A stretch of 64,000 bases of DNA from a virus (lineage: Duplodnaviria > Heunggongvirae > Uroviricota > Caudoviricetes), in the IMG/VR virus record IMGVR_UViG_2778261571_000004. The stretch is one strand, 5' to 3'. The notes beneath the pieces are model-generated. The model did not search any database. It was not told the DNA's origin and saw only the letters and a program-made list of their open reading frames with translations. Shown here one piece after another: positions 21,194 to 47,890 of the stretch. Position 1 is the stretch's first letter; each line of letters opens with the position of its first letter. The position numbers and the translations under genes were made by a program.

Positions 21194-21217
21194 TTAGATA
21201 ATTACTTACCTATCGAG
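21194..21217. promoter_or_regulatory. Palindrome, motif family 1, between terL and portal genes
   Basis: ttagataattacttacctatcgag. Confidence 0.4.
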
Positions 21218-22466
21218 AACCACCAAGAATAACACGGTTTTTGACTGGATACCTACGATGTACTGGATAGCCCAATGCGTCTGCACTATGCTCAATGCCA
21301 CCTGTCTTATCCATATCTCGTGTTCCAGGCTTGTAGATGACTTTTTCCAGTGAATCAATCAAATGCTTGCACTTCGGATCGATATACAGCCGGATATCTC
21401 CAGATGCGGTCATCAGCATTCGGTTAACAGCATTAACACGATCCGCAATTGGCGGGTGCTTTTTCGAATAATCGACACGTAAGAATCCCTTCTCTTTGAA
21501 TATGTCGACGTCAGACTCCCCGCGAGCATGTTGGCGATAAGCACCTGCCGGATCTGGAAATACCGTTATCTGTGATTTCCAGCGCCAGAAGCGTCTCTCA
21601 AGCTCATCACAAACCTCTGCCGTGTTAGAGGAAAAGAGCACCAATTCATCAATTGCCCATAGCTCACCATTTGGCTGAGGTTGCAAAATTACTGAAGACA
21701 TCGGGTCAATGTTGAAGTCCTGCCCTACCCATATAGGCAACCGAGGGTTGAACTGAAGCGGTTTTACATGCACGTTACGATCGAACGGGTAGTAAACGCG
21801 CCCGGACATGTTCTCAAAGCTCGCCAGGTACTCCTGAGCGAACGATTTCGGGTCCATATCGTTCTTAGCAGCTTCAATTTCCGCCGTAGGTACAAACGGA
21901 GAATCGGCAGTTACAAACTGCCAGCTCTTCCACTGTCCCTTTCTTTGCAGCTCTACGTTCTGGCCTATAGTCCACAGTTTGTGAAATTCCGAGAAGCCTT
22001 TTGGCGTACCAATGATCAGTGCACCGCCGCGTGTCGATGAAAGAGTAGGTCGTAACACCTTGTACCAGGTGTCAGCCTTCATATCCTGAAATTCATCAAG
22101 CACTACAAAATGCAACGCTACGCCGCGCAGAGTGTCAGGCTTATCAGCACCTTTGAGGGCGATCTCCGAACCGTTCTTCAACACGATTGTCATCGTGGTG
22201 TCGTTCTTTTTCCTAACCCACTTACGAGGCAGAACTTCCTGTAGATCGTCCCACAAAATCTGACGAGCCATCTGGTAAGTAGGAGCGACATACCAGACCC
22301 TTTGCTTTTTTTCCTTTGCCGCCGCACGAATAATAGTGGAGATCGACAACCGGGATTTTCCCCAGCGTCGACCAGCACAAACAACTTTAAATCGATGCGG
22401 AGACTGGAAGACTTTCATCTGTCCAGAATGCAGTTGCACAAGACTGAGCGAGGACGGGATTGCCAT
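21210..22466 (-). CDS. terL: Terminase large subunit
   Basis: Walker A-like CAGRRWGKS, Walker B-like HFVVLDEF, C-terminal nuclease-like region (VGQDFNIDP); 418 aa. Confidence 0.8.
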   Translation of the reverse strand: MAIPSSLSLVQLHSGQMKVFQSPHRFKVVCAGRRWGKSRLSISTIIRAAAKEKKQRVWYVAPTYQMARQILWDDLQEVLPRKWVRKKNDTTMTIVLKNGSEIALKGADKPDTLRGVALHFVVLDEFQDMKADTWYKVLRPTLSSTRGGALIIGTPKGFSEFHKLWTIGQNVELQRKGQWKSWQFVTADSPFVPTAEIEAAKNDMDPKSFAQEYLASFENMSGRVYYPFDRNVHVKPLQFNPRLPIWVGQDFNIDPMSSVILQPQPNGELWAIDELVLFSSNTAEVCDELERRFWRWKSQITVFPDPAGAYRQHARGESDVDIFKEKGFLRVDYSKKHPPIADRVNAVNRMLMTASGDIRLYIDPKCKHLIDSLEKVIYKPGTRDMDKTGGIEHSADALGYPVHRRYPVKNRVILGGSR

Positions 22467-23569: not shown

Positions 23570-24469
23570 TTATGCCGGTAAAGCAATTTCTAACGGTTTA
23601 TCCAAAGGTTGTTTGTCGAATGCCAGCAGTGGCAGCGTGTCAGGCAGTCGACGACCAAAGTCAGGGTTTCGATACACACCATACAACGGAGACGTAAAGC
23701 TCAGGTTGTGAATGTCCTTGAGCAGCTTCACAATGCTGGCCTCGTCCACCAGACTGTCGGCAATGTCCTGAATCGTCGTGCCACGATTCCGCCCAGCTTT
23801 TGCCAGGGAACTGTTCTTGTGGTAGTCCGCCACCAGATCACGCAGTGCACGGCGACGACGAGACTCGCTCATAGCGAACAACTCTTTGACGATCGCCTCG
23901 TTATCACCCGGGTCGGAGCGGAAATGGCGCTGGAACACACGCAGTGCACTTTCATAGCTCTTCGGTCGCTCAGGGCGGATGAACTTAAACCCTGCTTTCA
24001 TGGCGAAGGGATTGTATTTGCTCATCGATGACTGGATCTCAATGATTGGCCGGTCGTGCATCCTGCTAACCAGGTTAATCATTCGATAAGAGACGCCTAC
24101 GCCACGGTACTGAGTATCCACAACTGAGCGGCTGATCACCGCAAAGTTGTTATTCACGTACCGGCCCCAGTACTGGTTAGCCACGGTGGTATTGGTAGTT
24201 GGTTTCAACTTAGGAAACATGCGATGGCGAGGTGCCAGCAGAAGTTTCGGGTAAGCCATAACCACGACGCCCACCAGACGGTCATCCAGTTCGCAGCGAT
24301 AGTATGTTGGCGCGAAAGGTTTGCCGTCTGTTTTGTAGTGAAGCGATTTAAGAGCGTGCCAGTCCTCTACAGTTCCCTTTGTGACAGTCATTCGCTCCAG
24401 AAAGTCCAGATGACGCGGAAACTCTTCAGGGCGGTAGCGTTTGATGATGATATCTGCCATCTCGATCAC
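23570..24469 (-). CDS. Putative acetyltransferase (GNAT-like) domain protein with helical C-terminal extension
   Basis: 299 aa; motif QYRGVGVSYRM resembles GNAT acetyl-CoA binding motif A; assignment by pattern only. Confidence 0.3.
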   Translation of the reverse strand: MIEMADIIIKRYRPEEFPRHLDFLERMTVTKGTVEDWHALKSLHYKTDGKPFAPTYYRCELDDRLVGVVVMAYPKLLLAPRHRMFPKLKPTTNTTVANQYWGRYVNNNFAVISRSVVDTQYRGVGVSYRMINLVSRMHDRPIIEIQSSMSKYNPFAMKAGFKFIRPERPKSYESALRVFQRHFRSDPGDNEAIVKELFAMSESRRRRALRDLVADYHKNSSLAKAGRNRGTTIQDIADSLVDEASIVKLLKDIHNLSFTSPLYGVYRNPDFGRRLPDTLPLLAFDKQPLDKPLEIALPA

Positions 24470-24720
24470 CTGCGCTCGATATTGGCATTGATGAAATCCA
24501 GGCGAAGAGACTCCATCGCCCCTACCATGACATACGGGCGCCCGCCGTTATGCCAGCAATCAAGAACACTGCCGTCGTTGTTGATCATCAACAGCGCCAG
24601 GCTCTGGCTTTTTCCTTCTCTGGCGTGCTGAAGTGCTTCTTCCAGCAGGCGGATGACTTCCACGTTGTTGTTATCAGTCTCTTTCGATGGCTTCAGCTCT
24701 ACGATCTTCAAATCAGGCAT
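24466..24720 (-). CDS. Hypothetical protein
   Basis: 84 aa, 4-nt overlaps with both neighbours (operon member). Confidence 0.3.
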   Translation of the reverse strand: MPDLKIVELKPSKETDNNNVEVIRLLEEALQHAREGKSQSLALLMINNDGSVLDCWHNGGRPYVMVGAMESLRLDFINANIERR

Positions 24721-25351
24721 ATTCCACCTTCACGCGTTCTTTGTAGTGCTTGGTGATCTGCATATCCGGGCGCAGCGCGTTCTTCAGGTCTTCGTGAGTC
24801 GTCGCCACCATTACCGTCGCACCAACCTTTCGAGCGGCACGCTGGAGGTTAGATGCCACAACCTGAGCGGTTACACGGTCGAGAACAGCGCCGAACTCGT
24901 CAGCAGCCCACACTTTAGCGCCTGACTCAATCAGTTTGGCAATCTTGAGACGATATTTCTGACCGTCTGACATTTCAGAAGGCTTGCGAACAAACAGATA
25001 TGCATCGTTCAGACCAGCCATAGATAACAACCCAAGCGCATCACTGGTAGTTTTGCCCAGTTGGTCAATGACGTTAACCTCATTATCGAAGGTAAAATCA
25101 TCGATGGAGGCCACAGATAGCCCTTCATCCTTCATCTGGTGTTGCAGCTCGCGCAGCACAACGGATTTGCCGGAACCGGATTGGCCGGTAATGTACACCA
25201 CATCGCCCTGCTTCACTTCCAGCTCCAGATTGTCGTAAAGCGTCCACTCTTTTTCGTCCAGGCCAAGCCCGAACGACTCAGCGATTTCCAACGTGCGCGT
25301 GGTTTTATTTACGCGTGTCTGAAACGATACGTTGATGATGTATTTGCTCAT
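24713..25351 (-). CDS. Orphan ABC-type ATPase (nucleotide-binding domain only)
   Basis: Walker A GQSGSGKS, signature-like MSDGQKYR, Walker B VWAADEFGA, H-loop ATTHED; no transmembrane partner nearby. Confidence 0.6.
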   Translation of the reverse strand: MSKYIINVSFQTRVNKTTRTLEIAESFGLGLDEKEWTLYDNLELEVKQGDVVYITGQSGSGKSVVLRELQHQMKDEGLSVASIDDFTFDNEVNVIDQLGKTTSDALGLLSMAGLNDAYLFVRKPSEMSDGQKYRLKIAKLIESGAKVWAADEFGAVLDRVTAQVVASNLQRAARKVGATVMVATTHEDLKNALRPDMQITKHYKERVKVEYA

Positions 25352-26016
25352 GCAGCCATCTCCCCGGAAGAGATCTTCTCCGCATATGCCACAAATGCGT
25401 CTACCCCGCTTTCTCCCGTCATTTCTTCCATGTGGGCAAGCAAATCACCAACAACAATGGCAGAGCCAGCAGGGAGCGTTTTAAAGCCCAATACGTCGAC
25501 AACACGTACTTCTTCCGCTGCAACTTCACGACTGATCTCGGTGTGTTCATCCTTCTGTCGTTTAGTTTCTTCGCCAAGATCGATAACTAGCGAGTCGGTG
25601 TCCATTTCTTCTGTCATACTGCCAACGAGAACATTCAACTCACGCTCTTCAAAGCCGAAAACCTCGATATCGTCCAGAACAAGCGACTCAAGCTCTTTCT
25701 GTAGCTTAATTGCATCGTAATCAATGCTGGCAAGTCGGTTATCTTCAAGGCGCTTCGCACGAACCTCGTCATCACTGAGATCATCGCGAACAATAACCGG
25801 TACGCGCTCAAGTCCAGCAAAAATTGCAGCCTCACGGCGGCCGTGGCCAGTAATAATTACGTCGTTCTTATCGACCGTAATTGGCTGGTCAAATCCGCGC
25901 TTTTTAATGGCTGCGGCTAGATCTCGGATCTGCTGTTCATCATGCTTTTTGGCATTCATCTCATAGGGAATAAGATCTGCCGGGTCGCGATATACGATTT
26001 CAAACTTTTTGGTCAT
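25348..26016 (-). CDS. ParB/Srx-like nuclease-domain protein 2
   Basis: ParB N-terminal motif ITGHGRREAAIFAGLERVPV; start set at MTKKFEIVY giving TAATG overlap with upstream stop; ORF track 25348-26049. Confidence 0.6.
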   Translation of the reverse strand: MTKKFEIVYRDPADLIPYEMNAKKHDEQQIRDLAAAIKKRGFDQPITVDKNDVIITGHGRREAAIFAGLERVPVIVRDDLSDDEVRAKRLEDNRLASIDYDAIKLQKELESLVLDDIEVFGFEERELNVLVGSMTEEMDTDSLVIDLGEETKRQKDEHTEISREVAAEEVRVVDVLGFKTLPAGSAIVVGDLLAHMEEMTGESGVDAFVAYAEKISSGEMAA

Positions 26017-26714
26017 TACATACGCTCCTTGTAGTAGTCGACCAGCCACACCAGAGCCTCACCAGCGTTCTCCATTTCATTACCGGTGTTAATAGCCTGC
26101 TCTTTGATGATGTTTTTTATGGTTTCTGCAACACGATCTGACGCATCGAAAGTTACTTTGAAGCGCATGGTCTGATGTTCCGCACCCACACGTTCGGTTT
26201 TCTCTCGTTTGTCGGTATCGACAGGCTCATCACTACCACGAGACAACGCCTCCAGTGCTTCAAGGTCGATTGCCGCCTCTTTTGCTAAAACCATCGAGAT
26301 TTCGTCGTCATACGGGGCGATTTCAGACAGTTGATAGTCAAGTTCTGACTGAATTTCTTCAATGAAGCGTTGCAATGCGATTTGGTCGTCTTCACCGTAT
26401 CGCTCGTTGTCCACCAGTGACATCTGTTTAGCTACGACATCGCTAATTTTGCCCACAGAAAGCACCGGAACCGTTGAAATTCCTTGCTCAATAGCAGCAC
26501 GCCAGCGATGTTCGCCGCCGAGGATTTCAAAAAATCCATCTTCAAGTTCACGAGCCAAAATTGGCTTAAAAAAGCCCAATTTTTCGATAGAACCTTTCAG
26601 TTTTTCAAAATTCTGCGCACCAACCGAATTGGTGTTCCAGGTATTCGGGCGAAGGTTGGCAACATCAACCTGCAAAATCGTGATTTTTACATCCATTTTA
26701 TTGCTACAATCCAC
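26016..26714 (-). CDS. ParB/Srx-like nuclease-domain protein 1
   Basis: ParB N-terminal motif ILGGEHRWRAAIEQGISTVPV; acidic C-terminal half. Confidence 0.6.
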   Translation of the reverse strand: MDCSNKMDVKITILQVDVANLRPNTWNTNSVGAQNFEKLKGSIEKLGFFKPILARELEDGFFEILGGEHRWRAAIEQGISTVPVLSVGKISDVVAKQMSLVDNERYGEDDQIALQRFIEEIQSELDYQLSEIAPYDDEISMVLAKEAAIDLEALEALSRGSDEPVDTDKREKTERVGAEHQTMRFKVTFDASDRVAETIKNIIKEQAINTGNEMENAGEALVWLVDYYKERM

Positions 26715-26778
26715 TAAGTAATCACTTACTTATTATAATAGCCAAATAACATACAAAAGGCACTAAGGAAAGAGGTTT

Positions 26779-28338
26779 ATGACTGTTCGGATTGTATCTA
26801 ACGCAGTTAATGCGCTTATTTCTGGCGCAGATGACAAGGTAAAGCAAATGGTGCAACAGATGTTGAGCTACGAAGTCGAGACTGGCGACTGGAAGGGCAC
26901 AAGCACGATGTTCAACTGGAGTAAAAACTCGTTCCCTGCTGGCTTTGCCAAGCCTGTAGCGGCGAACTTGAACAAGGCGGGCATCAAATGTGTTCATATC
27001 CGCAAAGACAAAGCCCCGGCGCTTGGTAAACCAAATCCGGCGGTTAACCCATTCCCATACAATCCTGATTATGCGTATCAGGATCAGACTGTGGAAACAC
27101 TGGTTCGAGAGGGAATGATGATTGCGCAGATCGCTACTGGTGGCGGGAAATCTAATGTTGCCTGCAAAGCGACTGCACGTATCGGTCGAATGACATTATT
27201 TTTAACAACCCGCTCTGTTCTGATGTTTCAGATGGCCGAAAACTTCCAGAGATCCATCGACTACCGCGCCGAAAATGGCGAACCGTGGTTAAAAGACCAA
27301 AAGGTTGGAGTCATTGGCTCTGGTGAGTTCCAGGTATCACGACATATCAACGTCGCTACAGTTCAAACTCTGGCAAGTTTCCTTGAAGAACCACCACGCG
27401 ATGCAACTCCAGATAAGAAGAGCTACCACCTCAAACGTCGGGACTTGGTGAAACGCTTCCTTTCAAGTGTGTCTCTGCTTATTCTGGAAGAGGCGCATGA
27501 GTCTTCAGGTTCTAATTTCTATGACATTGCCAGATTATGTGTGAACGCAGACTATCGTCTGGCACTTACGGCCACGCCGTTCATGAAGGATTCTACAGAA
27601 GCCAACATGCGTCTGATGGCTGTGGCTGGGCGAATTGAAATCAAAGTCACAGAAAAGTACCTGATTGATCGAGGCATTCTGGCAAAACCGTACTTCCTTT
27701 ATCATAAAGTTGCCTACAAGCCAGACGAGGTCAGAATAAAGGCGGAACTTGCCAACAAACACCTCAATTTTAGAGTAGGTATGAGCACAGCCTACCAAAA
27801 GGCTTATCAGTTGGGGATCGTGTATAATTTGGGACGTAATGAGGCCATTGTTCGCGAAGCATTGCTCTATAAGCAACATTCTCTCAATTGTATGACTCTG
27901 GTTCGTCTTAAACGCCACGGGCAAATCCTGATGGAAATGATGAAAGAGTCCGGCCTTAGAGTTGACTTCATTTATGGGGAATCGAACCAGTCGACAAGGC
28001 AAGCAAAGCTGAACAGTTTAGCGTCTGGTGAAATAGATGTTTTAATAGGCTCGACTATTCTGGATGTTGGTGTTGATGTGCCAAGCGTTGGTGCGGTCAT
28101 TCTTGCTGGTGGTGGGAAAGCAGAAGTTGAAATGAGACAGCGTGTCGGTCGTGGCTTACGAGCCAAGAAGAATCAGGCAAACGTGTGTTTTATCACTGAT
28201 TTCATTGACATTAGCAACAAATACCTGTTGTCTCACTCTTATGAGCGAAAACACATCATCGACACCACACCTGGCTTTGCAGAAGGTGTATTGCCTATTG
28301 ATGGAGCATTCGATTTTGGAGTTCTGAAACGAGATTAG
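26779..28338 (+). CDS. SF2 DNA helicase (DEAH-type, UvsW/D10-like)
   Basis: Motif I ATGGGKS, motif II LILEEAHE, motif VI QRVGRGLR; 519 aa. Confidence 0.7.
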   Translation: MTVRIVSNAVNALISGADDKVKQMVQQMLSYEVETGDWKGTSTMFNWSKNSFPAGFAKPVAANLNKAGIKCVHIRKDKAPALGKPNPAVNPFPYNPDYAYQDQTVETLVREGMMIAQIATGGGKSNVACKATARIGRMTLFLTTRSVLMFQMAENFQRSIDYRAENGEPWLKDQKVGVIGSGEFQVSRHINVATVQTLASFLEEPPRDATPDKKSYHLKRRDLVKRFLSSVSLLILEEAHESSGSNFYDIARLCVNADYRLALTATPFMKDSTEANMRLMAVAGRIEIKVTEKYLIDRGILAKPYFLYHKVAYKPDEVRIKAELANKHLNFRVGMSTAYQKAYQLGIVYNLGRNEAIVREALLYKQHSLNCMTLVRLKRHGQILMEMMKESGLRVDFIYGESNQSTRQAKLNSLASGEIDVLIGSTILDVGVDVPSVGAVILAGGGKAEVEMRQRVGRGLRAKKNQANVCFITDFIDISNKYLLSHSYERKHIIDTTPGFAEGVLPIDGAFDFGVLKRD

Positions 28339-28340
28339 TT

Positions 28341-28619
28341 ATGAGCGAAAAGAAAACAACTTATTGCCAAGTGGCATTGTCTGATAAGGCCAATGAAAAA
28401 CTTGGAAAATTTCAAATAAAACTCAAAGAGAAAAAAATCAAGATGTCTAAGGCTGAAGTTATCAATGCCATTCTGGAGACGATGACTATGGCTGAATTTG
28501 ACAAAGTCACATCTGCCGTTGGGGTTTCCGCTAAGACGCGTGAGAAAATCATGCGCATCTATGAAAACTCCAATATGACAAAAAAAGATTTAGAGGAAAT
28601 ACTGAGCAGGTTGCCGTAA
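28341..28619 (+). CDS. Hypothetical small basic protein, translationally coupled to helicase
   Basis: 92 aa, starts 3 nt after helicase stop. Confidence 0.35.
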   Translation: MSEKKTTYCQVALSDKANEKLGKFQIKLKEKKIKMSKAEVINAILETMTMAEFDKVTSAVGVSAKTREKIMRIYENSNMTKKDLEEILSRLP

Positions 28620-28684
28620 CATTTCATATTTACCCCCTATCTACTAATTCTATGATGTGCTCACTTGTTAGAAAGGAGCACATC

Positions 28685-29251
28685 ATGAGTTGGTTAAAAG
28701 AATTATCATTTGTTGACACCACTGGCGCTAAGAAAAATCATTCTTTCTGGAAAGTCAGCGATCCTTCTGATTTTCTTGTTGGCGCTAATGCTGCTTTTGA
28801 ATTGCTTAACTTTTATCAACGTTATCCTGAAATGAAACACAGTCCACTCCTGTACAGAATAACAAACGATATGAATAGGTCTGGTTTATTATCAAGTGAG
28901 TCAGCGAAAGGCTTTTTTAGCAAAATTACGCCACACATATCATTCGATGCTGCAAACGAAATTGATTATCTATCCACGAAACCTCAAGAACAATTATCTG
29001 TACCACCTGAGAAAAAAGAAAGACGAATTGCCAGCATTGAAAATATATCGAAAGAGCTTCGCACAACAACGTTGAGGCTGCTGAACTTTCTTACGCTACT
29101 AAATTGGATAGATGATCAAACATTGATTCCATCAACCGATGCGTTGGATAACAGAGTACTTAGGCTGAACAAAAAATCGCAATTTGGTTTTGTGTTCACC
29201 AAAAAAGGTGAAGATTTAATCAAAAGAAAATATAGATTATTGAATGATTAA
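28685..29251 (+). CDS. Hypothetical protein (AT-rich moron)
   Basis: Start set at MSWLKEL with AGGAG RBS; ORF track 28652-29251; low GC. Confidence 0.3.
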   Translation: MSWLKELSFVDTTGAKKNHSFWKVSDPSDFLVGANAAFELLNFYQRYPEMKHSPLLYRITNDMNRSGLLSSESAKGFFSKITPHISFDAANEIDYLSTKPQEQLSVPPEKKERRIASIENISKELRTTTLRLLNFLTLLNWIDDQTLIPSTDALDNRVLRLNKKSQFGFVFTKKGEDLIKRKYRLLND

Positions 29252-29395
29252 TAGTCTACATGCAGGTGTATGAGAGCACCTGCATGTGACATTCGTCACA
29301 TTTTTTGAAGTGCACACCTCCGGCTGAAAAAATTTCTTGATTGGCTGAACGATATTTGTAGGCTTCATCGCTGAGTTTGGTCGAAGGGATAGCTA

Positions 29396-29971
29396 ATGGC
29401 TCTTTCAAATACACAACTTCACACGATATTGGATAAAGCTTCATATGTATCAAATGGGACACTTAGCGAAAATAACATTCAGATACAACGGGGGAAAGAA
29501 ACGAAAGATAAAATTCACGCTAAAGGTTTCTACTTCGGAAAGAGTTCAGCATTACGAGAATCTTATTCAAAAAACAACCCTTACCACATTTATTTAATTT
29601 CACCAGACAATGAGGATAGACGAGATGATTATTCATTGGTCATTTTCCCTTTCCAGATAAAAGAAATACTTCCTGTGATTGAAAATATAGATGGTATTAC
29701 CCCTGGATATATTCAGTTAAGCTCAAACTTCAATACGTTCAAAATTCACAATCGCTTAAAAAGTGATTCGTATTGTGGCGTAGGCTACTCTATAAAGGTT
29801 GAGAACGAAGACAGTCTATGGGAACTTATTGTGCAGATCAAGAAAAGGCTTGAGTTACCTAGAGGAGATAAGAACAGACTATCGACGCTACCTCAGAATG
29901 GATTACCTAAGACAAAAGAGGAAAATACACCTCAAAAGCTGATTGTAGATCTGCTCAACAAACGCTCATAA
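29396..29971 (+). CDS. Hypothetical protein (AT-rich moron)
   Basis: 191 aa ORF, no recognisable motif. Confidence 0.3.
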   Translation: MALSNTQLHTILDKASYVSNGTLSENNIQIQRGKETKDKIHAKGFYFGKSSALRESYSKNNPYHIYLISPDNEDRRDDYSLVIFPFQIKEILPVIENIDGITPGYIQLSSNFNTFKIHNRLKSDSYCGVGYSIKVENEDSLWELIVQIKKRLELPRGDKNRLSTLPQNGLPKTKEENTPQKLIVDLLNKRS

Positions 29972-29978
29972 ACTCTCA

Positions 29979-30353
29979 TTGTCAAAGACGGTTAAAAAGA
30001 TGAAGTCTAAAAAAATTCAATTTTTTTCTATGGCATTCTTGGCATTCTATATAGGAAATACAGTAGCCAAACCTTTAACGCCCGTTCAGCAAGATTACAT
30101 TAAAAGTATTCTAGAAAAACAATTACTGGCCCCGGATGCAGCTAAATACAAATTCCCAGATCACGTTGAAGGTAGCAATACATATTGTTTCAAACTAAAT
30201 GCGACTAACTCATATGGTGGGTATACAGGTTACAGATGGGTACAAATTCCTTACAATGACGTGTTAACCAAGAACAGCAACACTATTGTAGATCTAAATA
30301 TCCTACCTAAAGAGGTTTTTGAAGAAAGCTGTAAAGAATTAGGGTATAAGTAG
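29979..30353 (+). CDS. Putative secreted small protein
   Basis: N-terminal signal-peptide-like hydrophobic segment (FFSMAFLAFYIGNTVA). Confidence 0.35.
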   Translation: MSKTVKKMKSKKIQFFSMAFLAFYIGNTVAKPLTPVQQDYIKSILEKQLLAPDAAKYKFPDHVEGSNTYCFKLNATNSYGGYTGYRWVQIPYNDVLTKNSNTIVDLNILPKEVFEESCKELGYK

Positions 30354-30465
30354 CTCATCACTTGGAAGCATACCCTCGACAATATCAGAAAGATTTGTCG
30401 AGGGTTCGGGCTTTCCCTATGTTTGAACGATTAAATGTTAACAGCAATTAAATATTTTGTATATG

Positions 30466-31266
30466 TTATTCTTCTGGTGGCACGACAAAATCATCGAGCT
30501 TATTCTTTTCGTCTCGAAGCAACTTGATTTCTTCTTCTGTTATACATTTGTCATAATCTGTTTGTTCAGAATGGCACAGTGTAACCGCGAATGGATAGCC
30601 GGTATAGGACAGTCCCCTAACAGGTTCTAGTTCACCGTTGTCTTTTTTCCTAAATTTGTAAAAGTCAGGAGTGTCATAATTGGTGACGCTAACAAGAGCA
30701 TATTTATCATTTTCTCTTGCATACACTTCACTAACACCTCTCGATTCGCCCAACTCTCTACTCACATATGTCGAATCACTTGCAGCATCAAACACAGCCT
30801 GACCTAATGGAGTTTTTTTTAAATCATCTATTTTCTCTTTTTCCTTCCTGATTTTAGATTCGTTTTCCAGATAAAGTTTCACACCGTTTTCTTTACATGC
30901 TAGATTTTGGCGTTCAAAACGTAATCGTTCTCTTGCCGAGTTGGTACTTTTATCCATTGTAACGAATACAATCGGGTTACGTTCACGAACATCAAAGATG
31001 TGCGCATTGAATGCGGTCGCACCTGTATAGGCGTTCAAGACGTTTTTGCCATTCACCTCTCCACATACCATATATGAATAGCTATTTTCACCTAACTGAA
31101 TAGCTCGCATATTCGTGAACCGACCAGCATCAGGATCTAGCAGTGTAGAGCGAATATCCTTTTCAACTAGATCTATGGCTCGCTCTTCATCAGAATCACA
31201 ACCTGTTAATAGTAAAGCCGCTATTAACAATGCTAATGAGTATTTTTTATTCACCCCATTCTTCAT
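30466..31266 (-). CDS. Putative lipoprotein
   Basis: Signal peptide with lipobox LLTGC near N-terminus; 266 aa. Confidence 0.5.
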   Translation of the reverse strand: MKNGVNKKYSLALLIAALLLTGCDSDEERAIDLVEKDIRSTLLDPDAGRFTNMRAIQLGENSYSYMVCGEVNGKNVLNAYTGATAFNAHIFDVRERNPIVFVTMDKSTNSARERLRFERQNLACKENGVKLYLENESKIRKEKEKIDDLKKTPLGQAVFDAASDSTYVSRELGESRGVSEVYARENDKYALVSVTNYDTPDFYKFRKKDNGELEPVRGLSYTGYPFAVTLCHSEQTDYDKCITEEEIKLLRDEKNKLDDFVVPPEE

Positions 31267-31368
31267 GAAACTTATTCCATAATCAATTTTTGGTGGAATG
31301 TACGGTTAGTCTGTCTACGCATCATAGAGATGTATATAATGACCAAAAAAGACTTAAAAAGGTAGACT

Positions 31369-31890
31369 ATGGTTAAAGACATCACCTACGGCATACCGGC
31401 TGAAGTCTGGCCGCGAGACTACGAACATGCTGAAAACATACTTATGTTCTGGCGGAAGAACAACATTCCTGTAAGAGTCACGCTTGAAGACGGTCAGGTG
31501 TTTTGCATGTACGTTCAGGGGACAATGCCTTCCCGCAATAAGCTAGATTTATGCCCGCTTCCATATGATAAAGAAAATCGTATAAGACTCCCACTTGAGC
31601 GCATTAGCACAATTGAATCAGGTGTAATCGATGGCATTGCTCGCGAGTTCAAAGGTAGGCTAACAATACATCCAGACTATGTTGACAATCAGCCATCACG
31701 CCGTGACTTTTTTGCGATATGTCGCAAGGCTTATCAAAACGACCAATCTATAAGGGTCTACATGACAGACGGTCGTGAAATAGAAGGGGTGTCAAGAGGC
31801 GTTGATGCTTGCCAGGTCACTCTTAAGTTAGAAGACGGCAGAAAAATACTTGTTTTCTTCGATTGGGTTGAACGAATCCTTCCATTTTAA
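31369..31890 (+). CDS. Hypothetical protein with two beta-rich repeats (weak resemblance to Rof/Sm-like fold)
   Basis: Internal repeat VRVTLEDGQVFCMYVQG / QVTLKLEDGRKILVFFDW; pattern only. Confidence 0.25.
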   Translation: MVKDITYGIPAEVWPRDYEHAENILMFWRKNNIPVRVTLEDGQVFCMYVQGTMPSRNKLDLCPLPYDKENRIRLPLERISTIESGVIDGIAREFKGRLTIHPDYVDNQPSRRDFFAICRKAYQNDQSIRVYMTDGREIEGVSRGVDACQVTLKLEDGRKILVFFDWVERILPF

Positions 31891-31902
31891 ATCTATAAGG
31901 GT

Positions 31903-31930
31903 AATAACCGGCTAAGCCCGGTTATTATTT
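31903..31930 (+). terminator. Rho-independent terminator
   Basis: aataaccggctaagcccggttatt hairpin followed by T-rich run. Confidence 0.5.
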
Positions 31931-32185
31931 TACATGCCATTCATTTAAAACTCTTTCAATGTCACTCTGTATAAATATATAAGGTTAAAAGCCCGAATTG
32001 ATTATTTATTTAGGGAACACCTTCGACGATCTCGCTTTTATTTCTAGGACTTTCATCCCTGCAGAAAATTTAAAAAAAACACTTGCAATCTTTTTTCACG
32101 TATTGATAATTGAACTCGTCGAAAGCGAGCTGGCTAACGACAGTAAAAAATAAATTCATTTTAATTTTTCGTAAGGATGTCCATC

Positions 32186-32836
32186 ATGGCTAACATTATC
32201 ATTTCTAAAAAATCCATCATTGAAGCTGCTGCCATTGTATCCGACGAGCTGCGCGAAAAAGCAGATCTGGCAACTCAAACATATAACGAACATTATAAAA
32301 ATGGTACGCACACCAAAGCAGACAAAGCAAATATGCAAGCTGCGACCACTAAACTTGCTTACTTCATCAACAACGTCGTAAACGCAGTAGAAGACGAAAA
32401 ATTATGCTCTGTTTTCTACTATGCGATTAAAGCAAGCAAACAAGCGCCAGAAGTATTTTTCCGTGATGCAATGACTAATAGTTATTCTCTGGAAAAACTG
32501 GTCTATCTGGTCAAATCAATTAAAGCTGGTAAATGCGTTTATTCCATCGCTGATATGTCAGGATCTCGTGTATTCGCTTTAATCGATATGATTAACGACG
32601 AGATCGACACGTTCACCAATGGCGCTGTTTTCGATTTAATGAATGAAGCGAAAAAAGCGTGTGAAATTAAATTGGACGCTGGCTATACTCAAGCCAACCA
32701 GTTGATCAATCTTTGCGAACGTCTTGGACTTGTTGAAAAAGTCAAAGGAGCTGGGAGCGCGAAAGCTGGTACTCAGCAATATCGCTTTATTAAAAATGAT
32801 TTCTATAACTATCTGGCTGATGCTTTCAAAGCGTAA
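32186..32836 (+). CDS. Hypothetical protein
   Basis: ORF track 32177-32836; start adjusted to MANIIIS; AT-rich. Confidence 0.3.
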   Translation: MANIIISKKSIIEAAAIVSDELREKADLATQTYNEHYKNGTHTKADKANMQAATTKLAYFINNVVNAVEDEKLCSVFYYAIKASKQAPEVFFRDAMTNSYSLEKLVYLVKSIKAGKCVYSIADMSGSRVFALIDMINDEIDTFTNGAVFDLMNEAKKACEIKLDAGYTQANQLINLCERLGLVEKVKGAGSAKAGTQQYRFIKNDFYNYLADAFKA

Positions 32837-32849
32837 TTAATGGAATCTT

Positions 32850-32870
32850 GCGCCCACTATGGGCGCTTTT
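32850..32870 (+). terminator. Rho-independent terminator (identical copy at 33121)
   Basis: gcgcccactatgggcgc hairpin plus T run. Confidence 0.55.
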
Positions 32871-32883
32871 AAGGAGCTTAATC

Positions 32884-33114
32884 ATGTTTATTCTTATCGC
32901 TGGCGTTAACGTGCGCAATGAATATTTTGTTAATCGCATCGCTGGGATCGCTGGTTACGCTGGGCGCGCAGTCGAGTTCATAAATGAAACAACGCGAAAA
33001 ATTGACTTATTGAACGACCAGGAGCGAAAAAAAGCAGACGTGAATGACGCTGATATATTTTTAATGTTAAAAGCGTTTGTAGAAATGGGATTTAAAATCA
33101 GTTTACACAAATAA
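32884..33114 (+). CDS. Hypothetical small protein flanked by identical terminators
   Basis: Start at MFILIAG with AAGGAG RBS; ORF track 32848-33114. Confidence 0.35.
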   Translation: MFILIAGVNVRNEYFVNRIAGIAGYAGRAVEFINETTRKIDLLNDQERKKADVNDADIFLMLKAFVEMGFKISLHK

Positions 33115-33120
33115 AATCGA

Positions 33121-33143
33121 GCGCCCACTATGGGCGCTTTTTT
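33121..33143 (+). terminator. Rho-independent terminator (second identical copy)
   Basis: gcgcccactatgggcgc hairpin plus TTTTTT. Confidence 0.55.
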
Positions 33144-33167
33144 CGTTTCCAATACTCCCACCATAAC

Positions 33168-33192
33168 GCGCCAATGATGGCGCTTTTTTATT
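33168..33192 (+). terminator. Rho-independent terminator-like hairpin
   Basis: gcgccaatgatggcgc hairpin plus T run. Confidence 0.45.
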
Positions 33193-33604
33193 GTCTTTGA
33201 CTCACTCCAACAACATAAAAATAAGCGCCAAAATAACGCCATAGACGCGCTTTTATATCCTTGTCAGTACATACCCATTACTTAACACATTAACGCGCTT
33301 AAAACGCGTTATATTGCGCTATAGAGTATGGTTAATCATTGGCTTTTAGTCTTGCTATGTGATCCGCGTTTATTTGTCGGCGCGGATCGGCTCTTTGTGT
33401 TGTTTTGTATCCGCTCGCGTATTATGTGCGCGTGATTTTTCACATAATCACACCACTTAATCACATATGTGATTACGCTACGAAAGAAATCTGGATGTCT
33501 CAGGCGACGAAAGTCATCATAATTTTCCCCGCTCACCTGTCCGACAACCGCTGGTTGGATTCCACCAGCTTCCCGATGTTTTTTCTACATAAAGGCGAAT
33601 GCAG

Positions 33605-37859: not shown

Positions 37860-38700
37860 CCTCTCTATAGGCGTTAATGCTCACTCCTTCCAGAACGTTC
37901 TATACGGCGACTAATTCTGTTGGTGAATTGGGTGTGTTGTTCTCTCTGTCGGTGTAAATGGTTTCGTTCGTTTTGCGGTGGTTCTTCTATGGGGTGTTCT
38001 CGTCGTTTTGGTGATTGTTCTTCTCCGTCTATGGAGTAATGGCAGGTGGGCGATTGCTTTCGTTATTGTGTTTGAGTTGTTTGTCTGGAGTGTGTGAAAG
38101 GCTTTTGTAGTTATTCGTGTATTGGGTAATGGCGTTTCCCGTGATTGTTATGTTTCGTGTCTTTTGGGGTTGAGAGAAACCTTGCGGTAACAGGCTTCGT
38201 TGGGGTTTCAGTGATTCTGGTGTTTCTTCGCTGTTTGGGGAATGGCGTGTCGTGGGTATCGCGCGTATGAATGTTTTCGGATTGCCTGTGAAAGTTAGGT
38301 TGGTTGTCCGGTAGCCTGGGAAGAAGAGGTGGGTCTTTTCGGTAGCCTGCCATAAAGAGGTTGGTTGTTTTGGGGAATGGCATATGTGTTATTTAGTTGT
38401 TTTGTTATGCCTGAAAATAAGTTGTTTATATGGTTGTGTAACGCAATGGGAGTGATTTTGAGCGTGTGTTTTTGTTGGTAGTGTGTTGGTCGTCTGTGGT
38501 GAAAATTGGACGCTGTGGCGCTGTCTGCTGCGTAGAATTACGGGTATAAGCAGTGATGTGTGAAAACGTCAATTTTTTAGACCAAATCGGGTGAAAGCGT
38601 TGATGTTTCGTTGATCTGTTATTCAGTTGTTTCCTTGATTGTATAAACAACTATAACTTATTGATATTTAAGGGTGTGATTGCAGGTATGGAAGGAGAGT
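37860..38700. other. Non-coding region with extreme GT strand skew and degenerate 100-130-bp repeats
   Basis: About 78 percent G+T on plus strand in sampled 60-mers; recurring words gtaatggc, gggaatggc, cggtagcctg; ORFs here are low-complexity. Confidence 0.5.
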
Positions 38701-38781
38701 AGTGGCGATCAACGGATTCTTATAGAAAAGAATCAAATTGTGACCGCCATTATCAACTGATTGATTTGTTTACTTGTGTAG

Positions 38782-39180
38782 TCAGTTCTCGAAATGAATA
38801 GGGTCAACGTAATGCCGCTCACCGCTTTTACCATTACACAGCACTGTAACTTTCGCCTTTTCACTCCAGGCTGAGTATAGAAAGTTCCCATCAGGTTGAA
38901 CATGGTAACGAGAGAAGTAAACATCGCCGACTGAGGCGTCGAACATGTTCCTATCTTTTTCACTTTGGGCAAGCGAGATGGATATCACCGAATTCCCATT
39001 TGGGGAAACGATTTTAAATTTATTCCCTATATCCATAACAATATTGTAACCAGGTAATTGCTTGTGTGTTTCCGGATCTATTTTCATGCATCGTGGGTAC
39101 ACGATAGTGTTAGGCTCTTCAACTGGCGTGGCATTAGCAGAAAGCACAAAAAATATTAGTGCCAATGGTGCATATTTCAT
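38782..39180 (-). CDS. Putative secreted protein
   Basis: 132 aa with N-terminal signal-peptide-like segment MKYAPLALIFFVLSANA. Confidence 0.4.
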   Translation of the reverse strand: MKYAPLALIFFVLSANATPVEEPNTIVYPRCMKIDPETHKQLPGYNIVMDIGNKFKIVSPNGNSVISISLAQSEKDRNMFDASVGDVYFSRYHVQPDGNFLYSAWSEKAKVTVLCNGKSGERHYVDPIHFEN

Positions 39181-39876: not shown

Positions 39877-41910
39877 TTACTTAACCTGGTGGCCAGGTTT
39901 AGCACCGACATCCGGGCTTAACAGGAAGATATCTTTCCCGCCAGGGCCAGCAGCCATCACCATGCCTTCGGAGATACCGAAGCGCATTTTACGCGGAGCC
40001 AGGTTAGCCACCATAATGGTGTGACGACCAATCAGTGCCTGTGGGTCTGGATAAGCAGAACGGATGCCTGAGAAGACATTGCGTTTTTCACCGCCGAGAT
40101 CCAGTGTCAGACGCAGCAGCTTGTCAGAACCTTCAACAAACTCTGCGTTTTCGATCAGCGCCACGCGCAGGTCAACTTTGGCGAAGTCGTCAAAGGTGAT
40201 GGTTTCCTGAATCGGGTCGTCAGCCAGTGGGCCAGTTACCGGTGCGGCTGTGGCTTTCACTTCTTCTTTGGATGCTTCCACCAGTGCTTCCACCTGTTTC
40301 ATATCGATACGGTTATACAGTGCCTTGAACGGATTCACTTTATGGCCCAGCAGCGGTTGCTGGATACCATCCCAGGTCAGTTCTGTATTCAGGAATGCTT
40401 CTGCACGTTCAGTCAGTTTCGGCAGTACCGGCTTCAGGTACGTCATCAGCACGCGGAACAGGTTAATGCCCATAGAGCAAATCGCCTGCAGATCGGCATC
40501 GCGTCCTTCCTGCTTCGCCACCACCCACGGAGCCTGTTCATCGACATAGCGGTTAGCCAGGTCAGCCAATGCCATGATTTCACGGATAGCTTTACCAAAT
40601 TCGCGGCTTTCCCATGCTTCGCCAATCACTTCAGCGGCATCAGTAAAGGTTTTGTACAGTTGCGGGTCAGCCAGTTCGTTTGCCAGCACGCCGTCAAAAC
40701 GCTTGTTGATAAAGCCTGCATTACGGGAGGCCAGGTTAACCACTTTGTTCACGATATCGGCATTCACGCGCTGAACGAAATCCTCCAGGTTGAGATCGAT
40801 ATCATCAATGCGCGAAGAGAGTTTCGCAGTGTAGTAGTAACGCAGGCTGTCAGCGTCAAAATGATTCAGCCAGGTGCTGGCTTTAATAAAGGTGCCGCGA
40901 GACTTGGACATCTTCGCGCCGTTCACCGTCACATAGCCATGAACAAACAGGTTGGTCGGCTTGCGGAAGTTGCTGCCTTCCAGCATGGCAGGCCAGAACA
41001 GGCTGTGGAAGTAAACGATATCTTTACCGATGAAGTGGTACAGCTCGGCGGTGGAGTCTTTCTTCCAGTATTCATCGAAGCTGGTGGTATCGCCGCGCTT
41101 GTCGCACAGATTCTTGAAGGAACCCATGTAGCCAATCGGCGCGTCCAGCCAGACGTAGAAATATTTGCCCGGCGCGTCCGGAATTTCAAAACCGAAGTAA
41201 GGCGCATCGCGGGAGATATCCCACTGTTGCAGGCCAGATTCAAACCACTCCTGCATTTTGTTTGCCACCTGCTCCTGCAACGCGCCGCTGCGGGTCCATG
41301 CCTGCAACATTTCGCTGAAAGAAGGCAGATCAAAGAAGAAGTGTTCGGAATCACGCATTACCGGGGTAGCGCCAGAAACCACCGATTTCGGCTCGATCAA
41401 TTCAGTCGGGCTATATGTTGCGCCGCAGACTTCACAGTTATCGCCGTATTGATCTGGCGCTTTACATTTCGGGCAGGTGCCTTTTACAAAACGATCCGGC
41501 AGGAACATGCCTTTTTCCGGGTCGTACAACTGAGAGATAGTGCGGTTTTTAATAAAACCGTTCTCTTTCAGGCGAGTATAGATAAGCTCAGACAACTGAC
41601 GGTTCTCTTCGCTGTGCGTCGAGTGATAGTTGTCATAGCTGATGTTAAAGCCTGCGAAATCAGTCTGGTGTTCCTGACTCATTTCGCCAATCATCTGTTC
41701 CGGTGTGATACCAAGCTGCTGTGCTTTCAGCATGATCGGCGTACCGTGGGCATCGTCGGCACAGATGAAATTAACCTCGTGGCCGCGCATTCGCTGGTAA
41801 CGAACCCAGACATCAGCCTGGATGTGCTCCAGCATATGGCCGAGGTGGATTGAGCCGTTAGCGTACGGCAGCGCGCACGTCACCAGAATTTTCTTCGCGA
41901 CTTGGGTCAT
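39877..41910 (-). CDS. metG: Methionine--tRNA ligase
   Basis: 677 aa from [31 protein letters not shown]; HIGH (HLGH) and KMSKS motifs, zinc knuckle CPKC...CEVC, C-terminal tRNA-binding domain; ORF track start at 42039 is an upstream in-frame extension. Confidence 0.95.
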
Positions 41911-42067
41911 AGTAGGCATTACTTCTTTGTAGTGAAAAGGGGCTTGATAGTAACAAAATGGCCTTATGTCTGCCATGTGATAACAGCATTTCTCATAAAT
42001 GATTAAATGTCGTAGCTGGAGTACACTACAAGGCGACAATTGCGCAAATTAAAATAAAGGAGACGGG

Positions 42068-43168
42068 ATGAGCGAGTCCAAATCGCCGGATGCCCTGAGA
42101 GCAATGGTAGCCGGTACGCTGGCTAATTTTCAGCACCCAACCCTGAAACACAACCTGACTACGCTTAAAGCGTTACACCATGTTGCGTTGATGGATGACA
42201 CACTGCATGTCGAACTAATCATGCCTTTCGTGTGGAATAAGCCTTTTGAAGACCTGAAAGAGCAATGTAGTGGTGATCTGCTCCGTATCACTGGCGCAAA
42301 GGCTATCGACTGGAAGCTGTCGTACAACATTGCCACGCTTAAGCGCGTCAAAAACCAACCAGGCATTAATGGCGTTAAGAACATTATCGCCGTCAGCTCA
42401 GGCAAGGGCGGTGTAGGCAAATCGTCCACAGCAGTAAACTTGGCACTGGCGTTGGCTGCTGAAGGTGCGAAAGTTGGTATTTTGGATGCCGATATCTACG
42501 GTCCATCAATTCCAACCATGCTGGGTGCGGAAAACCAACGTCCAACCTCACCGGACGGCACTCACATGGCACCTATCATGTCTCATGGCCTGGCAACCAA
42601 CTCAATTGGTTATCTGGTCACTGACGACAACGCGATGGTGTGGCGTGGCCCGATGGCGAGCAAGGCGTTGATGCAAATGTTGCAAGAAACCTTATGGCCG
42701 GATCTGGATTATCTGGTGCTCGACATGCCGCCAGGCACCGGTGACATTCAATTGACACTGGCGCAAAACATTCCTGTAACTGGTGCGGTTGTGGTAACTA
42801 CGCCGCAAGACATCGCGCTGATCGATGCGAAGAAAGGCATTGTGATGTTCGAAAAAGTCGAAGTGCCGGTACTAGGTATCGTCGAAAACATGAGTGTGCA
42901 TATTTGCAGTAACTGCGGTCATCACGAGCCAATTTTTGGCACCGGTGGCGCACAGAAACTGGCCGAGAAATACAACACGCAGTTGTTAGGCCAAATGCCA
43001 CTTCATATCTCTCTTCGTGAAGATCTGGATAACGGAACACCAACCGTTATTAGTCGTCCAGATAGCGAATTTACGGCTATTTATCGTGACCTCGCAGATC
43101 GCGTTGCTGCCCAAATGTATTGGCAAGGTGAAGTAATACCTGGCGAAATCGCATTCCGCGCAGTGTGA
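42068..43168 (+). CDS. apbC: Fe-S cluster carrier ATPase ApbC/Mrp
   Basis: Deviant Walker A GKGGVGKSS, CxxC motif (CSNCGHHE), divergent from metG with 157-bp spacer as in enterobacterial chromosomes. Confidence 0.95.
   Translation: MSESKSPDALRAMVAGTLANFQHPTLKHNLTTLKALHHVALMDDTLHVELIMPFVWNKPFEDLKEQCSGDLLRITGAKAIDWKLSYNIATLKRVKNQPGINGVKNIIAVSSGKGGVGKSSTAVNLALALAAEGAKVGILDADIYGPSIPTMLGAENQRPTSPDGTHMAPIMSHGLATNSIGYLVTDDNAMVWRGPMASKALMQMLQETLWPDLDYLVLDMPPGTGDIQLTLAQNIPVTGAVVVTTPQDIALIDAKKGIVMFEKVEVPVLGIVENMSVHICSNCGHHEPIFGTGGAQKLAEKYNTQLLGQMPLHISLREDLDNGTPTVISRPDSEFTAIYRDLADRVAAQMYWQGEVIPGEIAFRAV

Positions 43169-46642: not shown

Positions 46643-46646
<4 letters not shown>
45084..46646 (+). CDS. 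hsdM: Type I restriction-modification methyltransferase subunit (type IC, EcoR124-like)
   Basis: 520 aa; SAM-binding and NPPY (NPPYSVKW) N6-adenine methylase motifs; N-terminus matches remembered EcoR124I HsdM. Confidence 0.9.

Positions 46647-47890
<1,244 letters not shown>

Follow-up and report, generated by a model that had tools for sequence, protein, structure and literature searches.

The 64,000-nucleotide stretch of viral DNA analysed here (IMG/VR record IMGVR_UViG_2778261571_000004, called the window below) contains at positions 26779-30353 a superfamily 2 (SF2) helicase gene, a gene for a basic protein of 92 amino acids (aa) and three AT-rich open reading frames (ORFs). The explanation which we regard as probable is that a core operon, formed by the helicase and its small partner, abuts a recombination-prone accessory slot at this place. 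The initial annotation, made from the sequence alone, had observed the locus correctly in every detail, and its interpretation was half right. New with respect to the database annotations are the precise boundaries of the slot, whose left border lies inside the 92-aa gene, a conserved hairpin sequestering the ribosome-binding site of the first AT-rich gene (p188), and, for the 92-aa partner, a probable ribbon-helix-helix character and a fast, mosaic mode of evolution.

A stretch of about 9 kb around the helicase locus is 96-98% identical to the Escherichia phages PhiR41_1 and Cyrano, the latter being the phage form of pLF82, and about 82% identical to Salmonella phage SSU5. In PLSDB the region matches approx. 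790 of the 72,556 plasmids (Klebsiella, Escherichia, Enterobacter, Yersinia pMT1, Salmonella pHCM2); nearly all of them are non-mobilisable, and many E. coli plasmids are among the near-identical (96-98%) relatives. Based on the identity to PhiR41_1 and Cyrano together with the plasmid matches, the window is, as judged by its sequence, a member of the SSU5 supergroup of phage-plasmids (SSU5/pLF82 type) described by Pfeifer et al. (PMC7969092). The related records label the helicase 'UvsW helicase' (Cyrano's copy) or 'DEAD/DEAH box helicase', and the 92-aa, 199/188-aa, 191-aa and 117-aa genes are all labelled 'hypothetical protein'. In our literature searches no paper was found on the helicase, the 92-aa partner or the slot in SSU5-type elements.

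Conservation of the helicase operon

In tblastn searches 788 of the approx. 790 plasmids that match the region proved to contain the 92-aa protein, and these are spread over the genera just as the region itself is. The helicase was found in 1039 plasmids, the surplus consisting mostly of Acinetobacter phage-plasmids at 42% identity; it is present in every SSU5-type plasmid, and its amino acid identity is at least 90% across the SSU5 supergroup. The genes of a 299-aa protein, an ABC ATPase and two ParB proteins run divergently from the helicase and the small ORF, and this order is found again in SSU5, pMT1, pHCM2, Enterobacter and Klebsiella. It is also kept in a Klebsiella pRHBSTW-type plasmid with a 71% identical helicase and in two IMG/VR lineages, where the identities of the helicase and the small protein are 82% and 36% in one case and 59% and 29% in the other. 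All enterobacterial lineages examined have the homologue of the 92-aa protein directly 3' of the helicase, even where the identity is as low as 29%. For the distant homologues P0026, P0029 and P0040 no loci were found in viral contigs, and for P0026 none in genome contigs. In the Acinetobacter and Rhizobium elements, too, the module is maintained and the helicase is followed by a small ORF; the hhalign comparison of the 92-aa family with the positionally equivalent Acinetobacter ORF was not significant (P = 0.16), thus homology of the small ORFs across that distance is unproven.

Since both genes are present in practically all members and their synteny is kept, the helicase and the 92-aa gene belong to the SSU5 supergroup's core backbone (persistent genome) and are not cargo. 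The proposal that the 92-aa partner had been acquired as cargo therefore has to be abandoned. As a counter-case to its own view, the initial annotation had named a conserved core pair followed by non-coding ORFs; the pair is indeed conserved core, and the downstream ORFs are coding.

As had been noted, the 92-aa ORF follows the helicase immediately: the helicase stop codon TAG ends at 28338 and the ATG of the 92-aa gene is at 28341, with 2 nt in between. The junction AGAGA(T/G)-stop-NN-ATG shows the identical 2-nt spacing throughout the SSU5 supergroup. In the more distant lineages L006 and L004 and in Acinetobacter the small ORF lies 41-92 nt downstream of the helicase, and in L006 and the Acinetobacter element a terminator-like hairpin is located inside this gap. 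These gaps and hairpins in distant lineages indicate that the coupling of helicase and partner is lineage-specific and not ancestral.

The SF2 helicase

The helicase gene (26779-28338, + strand, GC content 46.5%) codes for a protein of 519 aa. The motifs which had been recognised in it were all confirmed, namely motif I (GGGKS, residue 121), the DEAH-like motif II (EEAH, residue 237) and motif VI (QRVGRGLR, residue 454), and motif III (TAT) was found at residue 264. The Pfam domains ResIII (1.6e-14), DEAD (7e-14) and Helicase_C (3.6e-13) each scored above the gathering cut-off; the four motifs and the three domains together identify the protein as an SF2 enzyme. The best PHROG family was phrog_16 'DNA helicase' (2.4e-93), and the PDB matches were Sulfolobus XPBII (1.8e-12), A. 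fulgidus XPB (1.4e-8) and T4 UvsW (4.4e-8; PDB 2oca, spanning residues 231-485 only). Among phages, a Rhizobium phage carries a full-length homologue with 40% identity, and myophages of Staphylococcus, Bacillus and Listeria have the C-terminal half of the protein in their 'DhlA' helicases. The N-terminal domain of approx. 98-99 aa, for which a homology search had been proposed, gave no match in Pfam or among the PDB sequences, and it is left without assignment.

The archaeal XPB (Rad25) proteins provide the best PDB sequence matches and have motifs I, II, III and VI and a similar overall size in common with the helicase. However, the helicase reads TATPFMKD where XPBII has TATPERDD, and no Bax1-like nuclease partner stands beside it. 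An XPB orthologue was ruled out because the RED motif after motif III is missing; the score against the XPB family model NCBIfam NF045503 was 49.7 bits, compared with a cut-off of 610. T4 UvsW and T5 D10 are SF2 enzymes of the same broad clade (XPB/UvsW/T5-D10-like), the relation to D10 being known via clade membership, with the D10 sequence itself outside the comparison. Unlike T4 UvsW, the helicase belongs to a temperate phage-plasmid, in which its operon has ParB/ABC and terminase genes as neighbours. Forks, D-loops and Holliday junctions are the substrates on which UvsW and D10 carry out branch migration (PMC5180179), and because of this family membership the helicase would act in recombination or fork remodelling rather than as a replicative helicase. 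The replicative role was rejected since the protein falls in the SF2 XPB/UvsW clade. Of the earlier suggestion of a core replication/recombination enzyme, the core status stands; a part in replication would be conjecture, the similarity being to the XPB/UvsW/D10 clade and not to replicative helicases.

The 92-aa partner protein

The 92-aa gene (28341-28619, + strand, phrog_1466, GC content 38%), translationally coupled to the helicase, encodes a basic protein with pI 9.5 (19 K+R vs 13 D+E). A word-index homology search returned only close relatives, and an exhaustive profile search of 1.8 billion representatives yielded 26 clusters only, hence the family is small. When 19 diverse sequences were supplied, AlphaFold2 produced a model with a pLDDT of 84.3; with 8 close homologues only, the pLDDT was 54 and the model was unusable. 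In the model residues 1-14 are extended, and helices span 15-30, 37-47, 50-76 and 81-90. The N-terminal part has a ribbon-helix-helix-like layout (strand 7-13, helix 15-30, helix 37-47), which is followed by the two C-terminal helices. In the family alignment alternating conserved hydrophobics (x-C-x-V/L-x-L) precede an S/T-P/D cap at which helix A starts; a short loop, in which a Ser/Thr is conserved, then leads into helix B, and the helix-B segment 'KMSKAEVINAILE' resembles the loop and helix B of CopG/Arc (in CopG 'GLSKSAMISVALE').

The structure search which had been proposed for this protein gave a helical model and weak matches to ribbon-helix-helix proteins. An hhalign comparison of the family with a small alignment of Arc, Mnt, CopG, ParD and NikR found the expected register (P = 0.016), and the PDB profile search gave a weak match to TTHA0139 (E = 0.54) on an N-terminal segment of similar pattern. 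The Foldseek matches included PcfF and chain C of the Rv0301-Rv0300 toxin-antitoxin complex, both non-significant (E 3.6-5.1) and both ribbon-helix-helix proteins. The 92-aa protein resembles Arc, CopG, ParG and PcfF in its predicted layout, in which a strand with alternating hydrophobics leads to helix A and a short loop, N-capped by S/T, to helix B; it is also a small, basic protein, and the model gives it a C-terminal helical extension of the sort that PcfF and Mnt carry. It differs from them in having no Pfam ribbon-helix-helix match, and its dimerisation and DNA binding are predicted only. We infer a helical protein of DNA-binding type, and on the modelled layout we put the chances of a genuine ribbon-helix-helix fold slightly above even.

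In close comparisons the dN/dS of the 92-aa gene is 0.08-0.09, which indicates purifying selection, and the protein diverges 4-5 times faster than the helicase. Compared with pMT1, pHCM2 and SSU5, the ABC ATPase is 98%, the helicase 92%, the ParB proteins 87-90% and the 92-aa protein 57-58% identical.

The accessory slot

Comparison with the E. albertii element (L013) gave dS values of 0.118 for the helicase and 0.117 for p219, and of 0.534 for the 92-aa gene and 0.70 for the FljA-like gene further downstream. In 150-nt windows the identity to the same element falls from 98% through 93% to 87% across the 92-aa gene and the homology ends at 28623; the homology to pHH12, pMT1 and the Enterobacter element ends near 28589. 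Homology to all relatives resumes at about 31375, at the start of the FljA-like gene. Between these borders (28620-31370) the GC content is 37.0%, compared with 45.9% for the whole window. The compositional shift which had been noticed after the helicase (helicase gene 46.5%, 92-aa gene 38%, three AT-rich ORFs 35-36%) is therefore real and is accompanied by an evolutionary break at 28623. Read from the sequence comparisons, the 92-aa gene is the edge of a recombining block and its 3' half has the deeper history of the slot. The dS pattern suggests that this position is the reason why the gene diverges fast in spite of the purifying selection.

The content of the slot differs from element to element. 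In the window and in PhiR41_1 it consists of p188, p191, p124 and a 266-aa lipoprotein gene on the reverse strand. Cyrano has p188 and the lipoprotein, with about 170 bp of unrelated DNA instead of 29367-30364 (p191, p124). The Klebsiella element L007 carries homologues of p188, p191 and p124 at 41-43%, 51-52% and 60-70% identity, respectively (tblastn or codon alignment), and no lipoprotein. In SSU5, pHCM2, pMT1 and pHH12 a single protein of about 117-140 aa is found. In SSU5, pHH12 and the IMG/VR element L004 the slot holds a phrog_890 lipoprotein; the pMT1 gene, which was outside the PHROG scan, has the same length and position as the phrog_890 genes. E. albertii has a phrog_18942 protein, some other elements have phrog_2320 proteins, and one IMG/VR lineage has an empty slot. 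The occupants are mostly exported envelope proteins. The segment 28620-31370, flanked by the 92-aa gene and the FljA-like gene, is thus an accessory ('moron') slot prone to recombination, as its variable content among collinear relatives, its deviant GC content and its terminator-like hairpins all show, the promoter evidence being at the level of consensus. The GC profile and the survey of relatives which the initial annotation had proposed bear out its view of the downstream AT-rich genes as accessory: of the approx. 790 related plasmids, p188 is present in 178, p191 in 77 and p124 in 80, which places them among the shell or cloud genes.

The three AT-rich ORFs were found where they had been described (28652-29251, 29396-29971 and 29979-30353). 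Each matches a PHROG family over its full length, and each has full-length homologues at 41-70% amino acid identity in Klebsiella and Cronobacter elements. In the comparison of the window with Klebsiella pN is below pS for all three, dS being saturated for p188 and p124, and the dN/dS of p191 is 0.29. Because the frames are kept in full length at such low identity, with pN below pS and full-length PHROG matches, their sequences mark p188, p191 and p124 as genuine genes.

The p191 gene (29396-29971, + strand, 191 aa, phrog_29155) is an accessory gene confined to SSU5-type elements. The p124 frame (29979-30353, + strand) begins with TTG as listed; the ORF probably starts at ATG 30000, which gives 117 aa. 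The signal peptide ascribed to one of the ORFs was recognised here, with the N-terminus being read as MKSKKIQFFSMAFLAFYIGNTVA/KP, a typical Sec signal. No match was found for p191 and p124 in Pfam, NCBIfam, PADLOC or PDB; p188 likewise gave none in these four. Homology searches with p188 and p191 returned only 'hypothetical protein' entries from the same elements, and BLASTP found no pairwise similarity between p188 and p219. The 266-aa lipoprotein (30466-31266, - strand) has the lipobox LLTGC with Asp at +2, which classically means retention in the inner membrane. It matches phrog_20234 (8e-188) and, with its N-terminal domain, phrog_2320 (8e-20). The latter family is also matched by p124 (1.7e-23); BLASTP detected no pairwise similarity between the two proteins, and the link consists of these common profile matches only. 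The p191 and p124 genes are bracketed by the terminator of p188 and by a hairpin at 30372-30405 (-27 kcal/mol), which lies between the convergent p124 and lipoprotein genes, resembles a bidirectional terminator and is kept in Cyrano. The p191-p124 unit appears to have its own promoter-like site and terminators.

The slot resembles the moron hotspots of phages in being an AT-rich variable cassette between backbone genes, with its own terminators, a promoter-like site and proteins with signal peptide or lipobox. T5 Llp and the Cor-type proteins of phi80 and N15 are superinfection-exclusion lipoproteins encoded by such morons. The likeness to them is one of layout, homology to Llp or Cor being outside the comparison. 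By this analogy the exported slot proteins most plausibly modify the cell envelope, in superinfection exclusion or lysogenic conversion.

The gene of the FljA-like (Flag1_repress) protein (31369-31890, + strand, Pfam 1e-80) forms the slot's right border. This conserved gene of the phage-plasmids corresponds to the Pfam family 'repressor of phase-1 flagellin' and shows weak Hfq/LSM similarity. Its alleles are deeply diverged, the amino acid identity being 74-79% and dS 0.7-1.4 even when the E. coli elements compared are close. Scanning 26000-33500 with Rfam revealed nothing relevant.

The hairpin at the start of p188

The p188 gene (28685-29251, + strand, phrog_13473) is a shell gene between the 92-aa gene and the terminator of the operon. 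Its frame is open from 28652, which would give 199 aa; it very probably starts at ATG 28685 and encodes 188 aa. The Shine-Dalgarno sequence AAGGAG 7 nt upstream, the annotation of PhiR41_1 and the PHROG alignment, which begins at residue 12, all point to this start. At 28643-28694 (+ strand) there is an RNA hairpin, or DNA palindrome, with the arms ATGATGTGCTC / GAGCACATCAT plus extensions, in which both AAGGAG (28673-28678) and the start codon at 28685 are paired. Its minimum free energy is -28.5 kcal/mol (z = -7.4), and none of 200 shuffled sequences was as stable. Apart from one G-C pair that is swapped to C-G, the hairpin is kept in the Klebsiella, Cronobacter and E. coli homologues, whose proteins share only about 41% identity. 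In L004 a hairpin of different sequence again pairs the Shine-Dalgarno sequence and the AUG, which favours an RNA structure over an operator, though the palindrome could act as a protein operator.

In transcripts coming from upstream the hairpin pairs the Shine-Dalgarno sequence and the AUG of p188, as in the fold-back inhibition of IS10 and IS50, the analogy being purely structural. In the IS10 transposase mRNA such folding inhibits read-through translation. A promoter-like -10 sequence TATGAT (28651-28656), which as a promoter match is at chance level, lies inside the 5' arm, and a transcript started locally would hypothetically escape the hairpin. Downstream of p188 there are two hairpins (29259-29306, + strand), the second of which (29284-29301) is followed by a T-run and resembles an intrinsic terminator. 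The site at 29284-29306 is, from its sequence features, the likely end of the helicase transcription unit. In the elements without p188 a GC-rich hairpin directly follows the 92-aa gene, with a clear T-run in SSU5. Since the terminator-like site is shifted to a position after p188 when this gene is present, p188 is probably read through from the helicase promoter. In the E. coli plasmid pGS04EC-1 (L015, 1-432) the IS5-like ISKpn26 is inserted directly 5' of the p188 homologue and replaces the hairpin region and the junction on the side of the 92-aa gene, a natural variant in which p188 stands without the 5' structure.

The divergent operon and the shared intergenic region

The operon divergent from the helicase (23570-26714, - strand) encodes the 299-aa protein, p84, a 212-aa ABC-type ATPase and two proteins with a ParB/Srx N-terminal domain (233 and 232 aa), recognised by NCBIfam and PADLOC matches. 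It adjoins the large terminase gene (21210-22466, Pfam). The module of two ParB/Srx proteins, the ABC ATPase and the protein of about 300 aa, which occurs also in the elements L005 and L011, adjoins terminase genes and is always divergent from the helicase; it is kept from Enterobacteria to the Acinetobacter and Rhizobium phage-plasmids. In Cyrano the protein of about 300 aa is labelled 'ABC-type ATPase fused to acetyltransferase, MK0520-like'. The 84-aa ORF (24461-24718), located between the ABC ATPase and the 299-aa gene, is present also in SSU5, pMT1, pHCM2 and Klebsiella (96-99% identity) and missing from the nearest E. coli relatives (Cyrano, PhiR41_1, pHH12, E. albertii), and it represents a small mosaic indel in an otherwise conserved operon. 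The ParB/ABC module may be the more interesting conserved puzzle of the region.

The 64-bp intergenic region between the two operons contains the inverted repeat AAGTAA-N4-TTACTT directly 5' of a TATAAT (26716-26739). From the sequence we propose it as a candidate promoter and operator. The motif TAAGTA..CTTACTTA..TATAAT is kept in SSU5, pMT1 and the IMG/VR element L004, and in the Klebsiella element L007 the -10 sequence is degraded (TATTCT). The conserved repeat was considered as proof of operator binding by the 92-aa protein and rejected as such, since it does not co-vary with the protein alleles.

Proposed model and alternative explanations

According to the model suggested here, the core operon would be a vertically inherited part of the backbone, transcribed from the 64-bp divergent region in common with the ParB-ParB-ABC operon, beside the packaging genes. 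The helicase would be an SF2 DNA translocase which performs branch migration or remodels forks, D-loops and junctions in recombination-dependent replication or concatemer processing. The 92-aa protein would form a ribbon-helix-helix dimer with a C-terminal helical extension and serve as a regulator, or as a DNA-targeting factor for its own region. The slot would start in the last approx. 150 nt of the 92-aa gene, where different elements swap in different AT-rich cassettes, and the p188 hairpin would insulate or gate the translation of p188 in read-through transcripts.

Several results weigh against parts of this model. The ribbon-helix-helix assignment lacks significant statistical support, as the hhalign probability is 2.8%; the Foldseek search of the model against PDB and BFVD gave nothing significant (E > 0.3), and the Pfam scan of every family member gave chance-level matches only and no ribbon-helix-helix domain. 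The divergent-promoter repeat is kept across the enterobacterial lineages whatever the 92-aa allele, and its failure to co-vary with the divergent small-protein alleles would be unexpected if the 92-aa protein acted as a sequence-specific autoregulator. Promoters and terminators were called from matches to a consensus, and promoter-like sites are no commoner than in shuffled sequence. The superinfection-exclusion role of the exported proteins stands on analogy alone. Gene content, conservation, the mosaic boundary, the hairpin and purifying selection were observed; the biochemical roles of the proteins were all inferred, no function having been demonstrated for any of them.

The tight coupling and the universal linkage to the helicase would also fit a different part for the 92-aa protein, which is a further point against the model: it might serve the helicase as its dedicated accessory subunit, functionally analogous to T4 UvsW.1, held in a fixed ratio by the coupling and modulating the choice of substrate. 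The 2-nt stop-start spacing with its upstream GAGA is indeed maintained throughout the supergroup, and each homologue whose context could be examined lies directly 3' of the helicase, with several distant homologues unplaceable. The arrangement in T4-like phages is alike, with a small helical ORF (about 76-92 aa in the two systems) directly 3' of the helicase in the same operon: the 76-aa uvsW.1 comes after uvsW, and many genomes have a terminator behind it (PMC1524935). UvsW.1, as here the 92-aa protein, has been proposed as a DNA binder, being named UvsW's potential DNA-binding partner (PMC7824862). In SSU5 (GC hairpin with T-run), and less clearly in pMT1, the small gene is likewise followed at once by a terminator-like hairpin. 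However, the 92-aa protein has no detectable similarity to UvsW.1 in sequence or fold, no match to UvsW.1 having been obtained in the PDB sequence and profile searches (E <= 10) or the Foldseek PDB search. The partner is only 57% identical where the helicase is 92%, and 36% where it is 82%, and its dS matches the slot and not the helicase; in L006, L004 and Acinetobacter the two genes are 41-92 nt apart, in L006 and Acinetobacter with a hairpin in between, so the coupling is not ancestral. We consider the accessory subunit unlikely. A bolder idea, built on analogy with the relaxosome, where accessory proteins of ribbon-helix-helix fold guide the relaxase/helicase, is that the 92-aa protein is a fast-diversifying ribbon-helix-helix specificity factor, which directs or licenses the SF2 helicase at element-specific sites, and that p188 is a translationally gated switch or a toxic protein. 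This we regard as improbable. If it were true, the exchange of 92-aa alleles together with the slot would create incompatibility or immunity-like types among co-circulating SSU5-type phage-plasmids, and the p188 hairpin would block expression from read-through transcripts.

As for the slot, p188, p191 and p124 might form one three-gene accessory system for defence, exclusion or envelope modification instead of being independent morons. The trio is collinear in the window, PhiR41_1 and Klebsiella, and at the low identities of the Klebsiella homologues this means an old association (in the Cronobacter element only p188 and a partial adjacent ORF are visible). The distributions of p191 and p124 are near-identical, too (77 and 80 plasmids; E. 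coli 13/13, Klebsiella 61/64, Cronobacter 3/3). On the other side, p188 occurs alone in about 100 further plasmids including Cyrano, a terminator-like site separates it from p191, and none of the three matches a PADLOC model at a meaningful score or has a recognisable enzymatic domain, which leaves a single system doubtful. It is far less credible still that the helicase and its partner and/or the ParB/ABC genes are anti-phage defence or restriction-like cargo. PADLOC PbeA matches the helicase at 9e-23 and NCBIfam 'dnd_restrict_1' at 6e-16, and the ParB-like proteins match a type II methyltransferase model. None of these matches (PbeA, Dnd, type IV REase) extends beyond the generic SF2 core or, for the ParB-like proteins, the N-terminal domain, TIGR04095 scoring 58 bits against a cut-off of 600; the limitation to generic cores led us to reject the defence reading. 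Moreover, neither a nuclease or methyltransferase catalytic domain nor the PbeB-D partners are present, and the genes are universal, at least 90% conserved and located beside the terminase in every element, the real defence cargo, a type I restriction-modification system, being found at 45-51 kb. Finally, the GC content of 35-36%, the missing domain matches and the TTG start of the 124-aa frame could be taken as signs that the AT-rich ORFs are spurious frames in non-coding or decaying DNA. This is effectively refuted by their frameshift-free full-length homologues, which are recognisable as proteins where the DNA is barely alignable, by the pN below pS in all three together with the dN/dS of p191 and the full-length PHROG matches, and by the good Shine-Dalgarno sequences, the signal peptide and the flanking terminators.

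Other features of the element

The window carries chromosome-like cargo at 39877-43168, where a full-length methionyl-tRNA synthetase gene, metG (Pfam 4.6e-166), is divergent from an apbC/mrp-like P-loop NTPase gene. The GC content of this segment is 50-52%, and many of the related E. coli plasmids have this cargo in their annotation, too. The recognisable defence cargo of the element is a complete type I restriction-modification system (hsdM, hsdS, hsdR) at 45084-51128. At 37900-38560 about 650 bp contain no ORF of at least 100 aa and the + strand is strongly G+T-rich, the GC skew being +0.32 and the AT skew -0.25 at 38001-39000. Tandem repeats were looked for in 37900-38560 and none was detected; the segment could serve as an origin or as a transcript leader, or it could encode a non-coding RNA.

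Significance

Though poorly annotated, the locus is an ordinary part of a mobile element that is very common, and its analysis does not overturn the current understanding. SSU5-type phage-plasmids are very common in clinical Enterobacteriaceae, where they are carriers of resistance and defence cargo. The pairing of the helicase with the small ORF parallels T4 UvsW/UvsW.1, the small partner of which is itself still uncharacterised, and the hairpin over the ribosome-binding site of p188 is a concrete, testable regulatory element. Distinguishing the backbone (helicase, 92-aa partner, ParB/ABC operon) from the slot at 28.6-31.4 kb helps the annotation and typing of these elements, the choice of safe insertion or deletion sites, and the search for lysogenic-conversion or exclusion functions.

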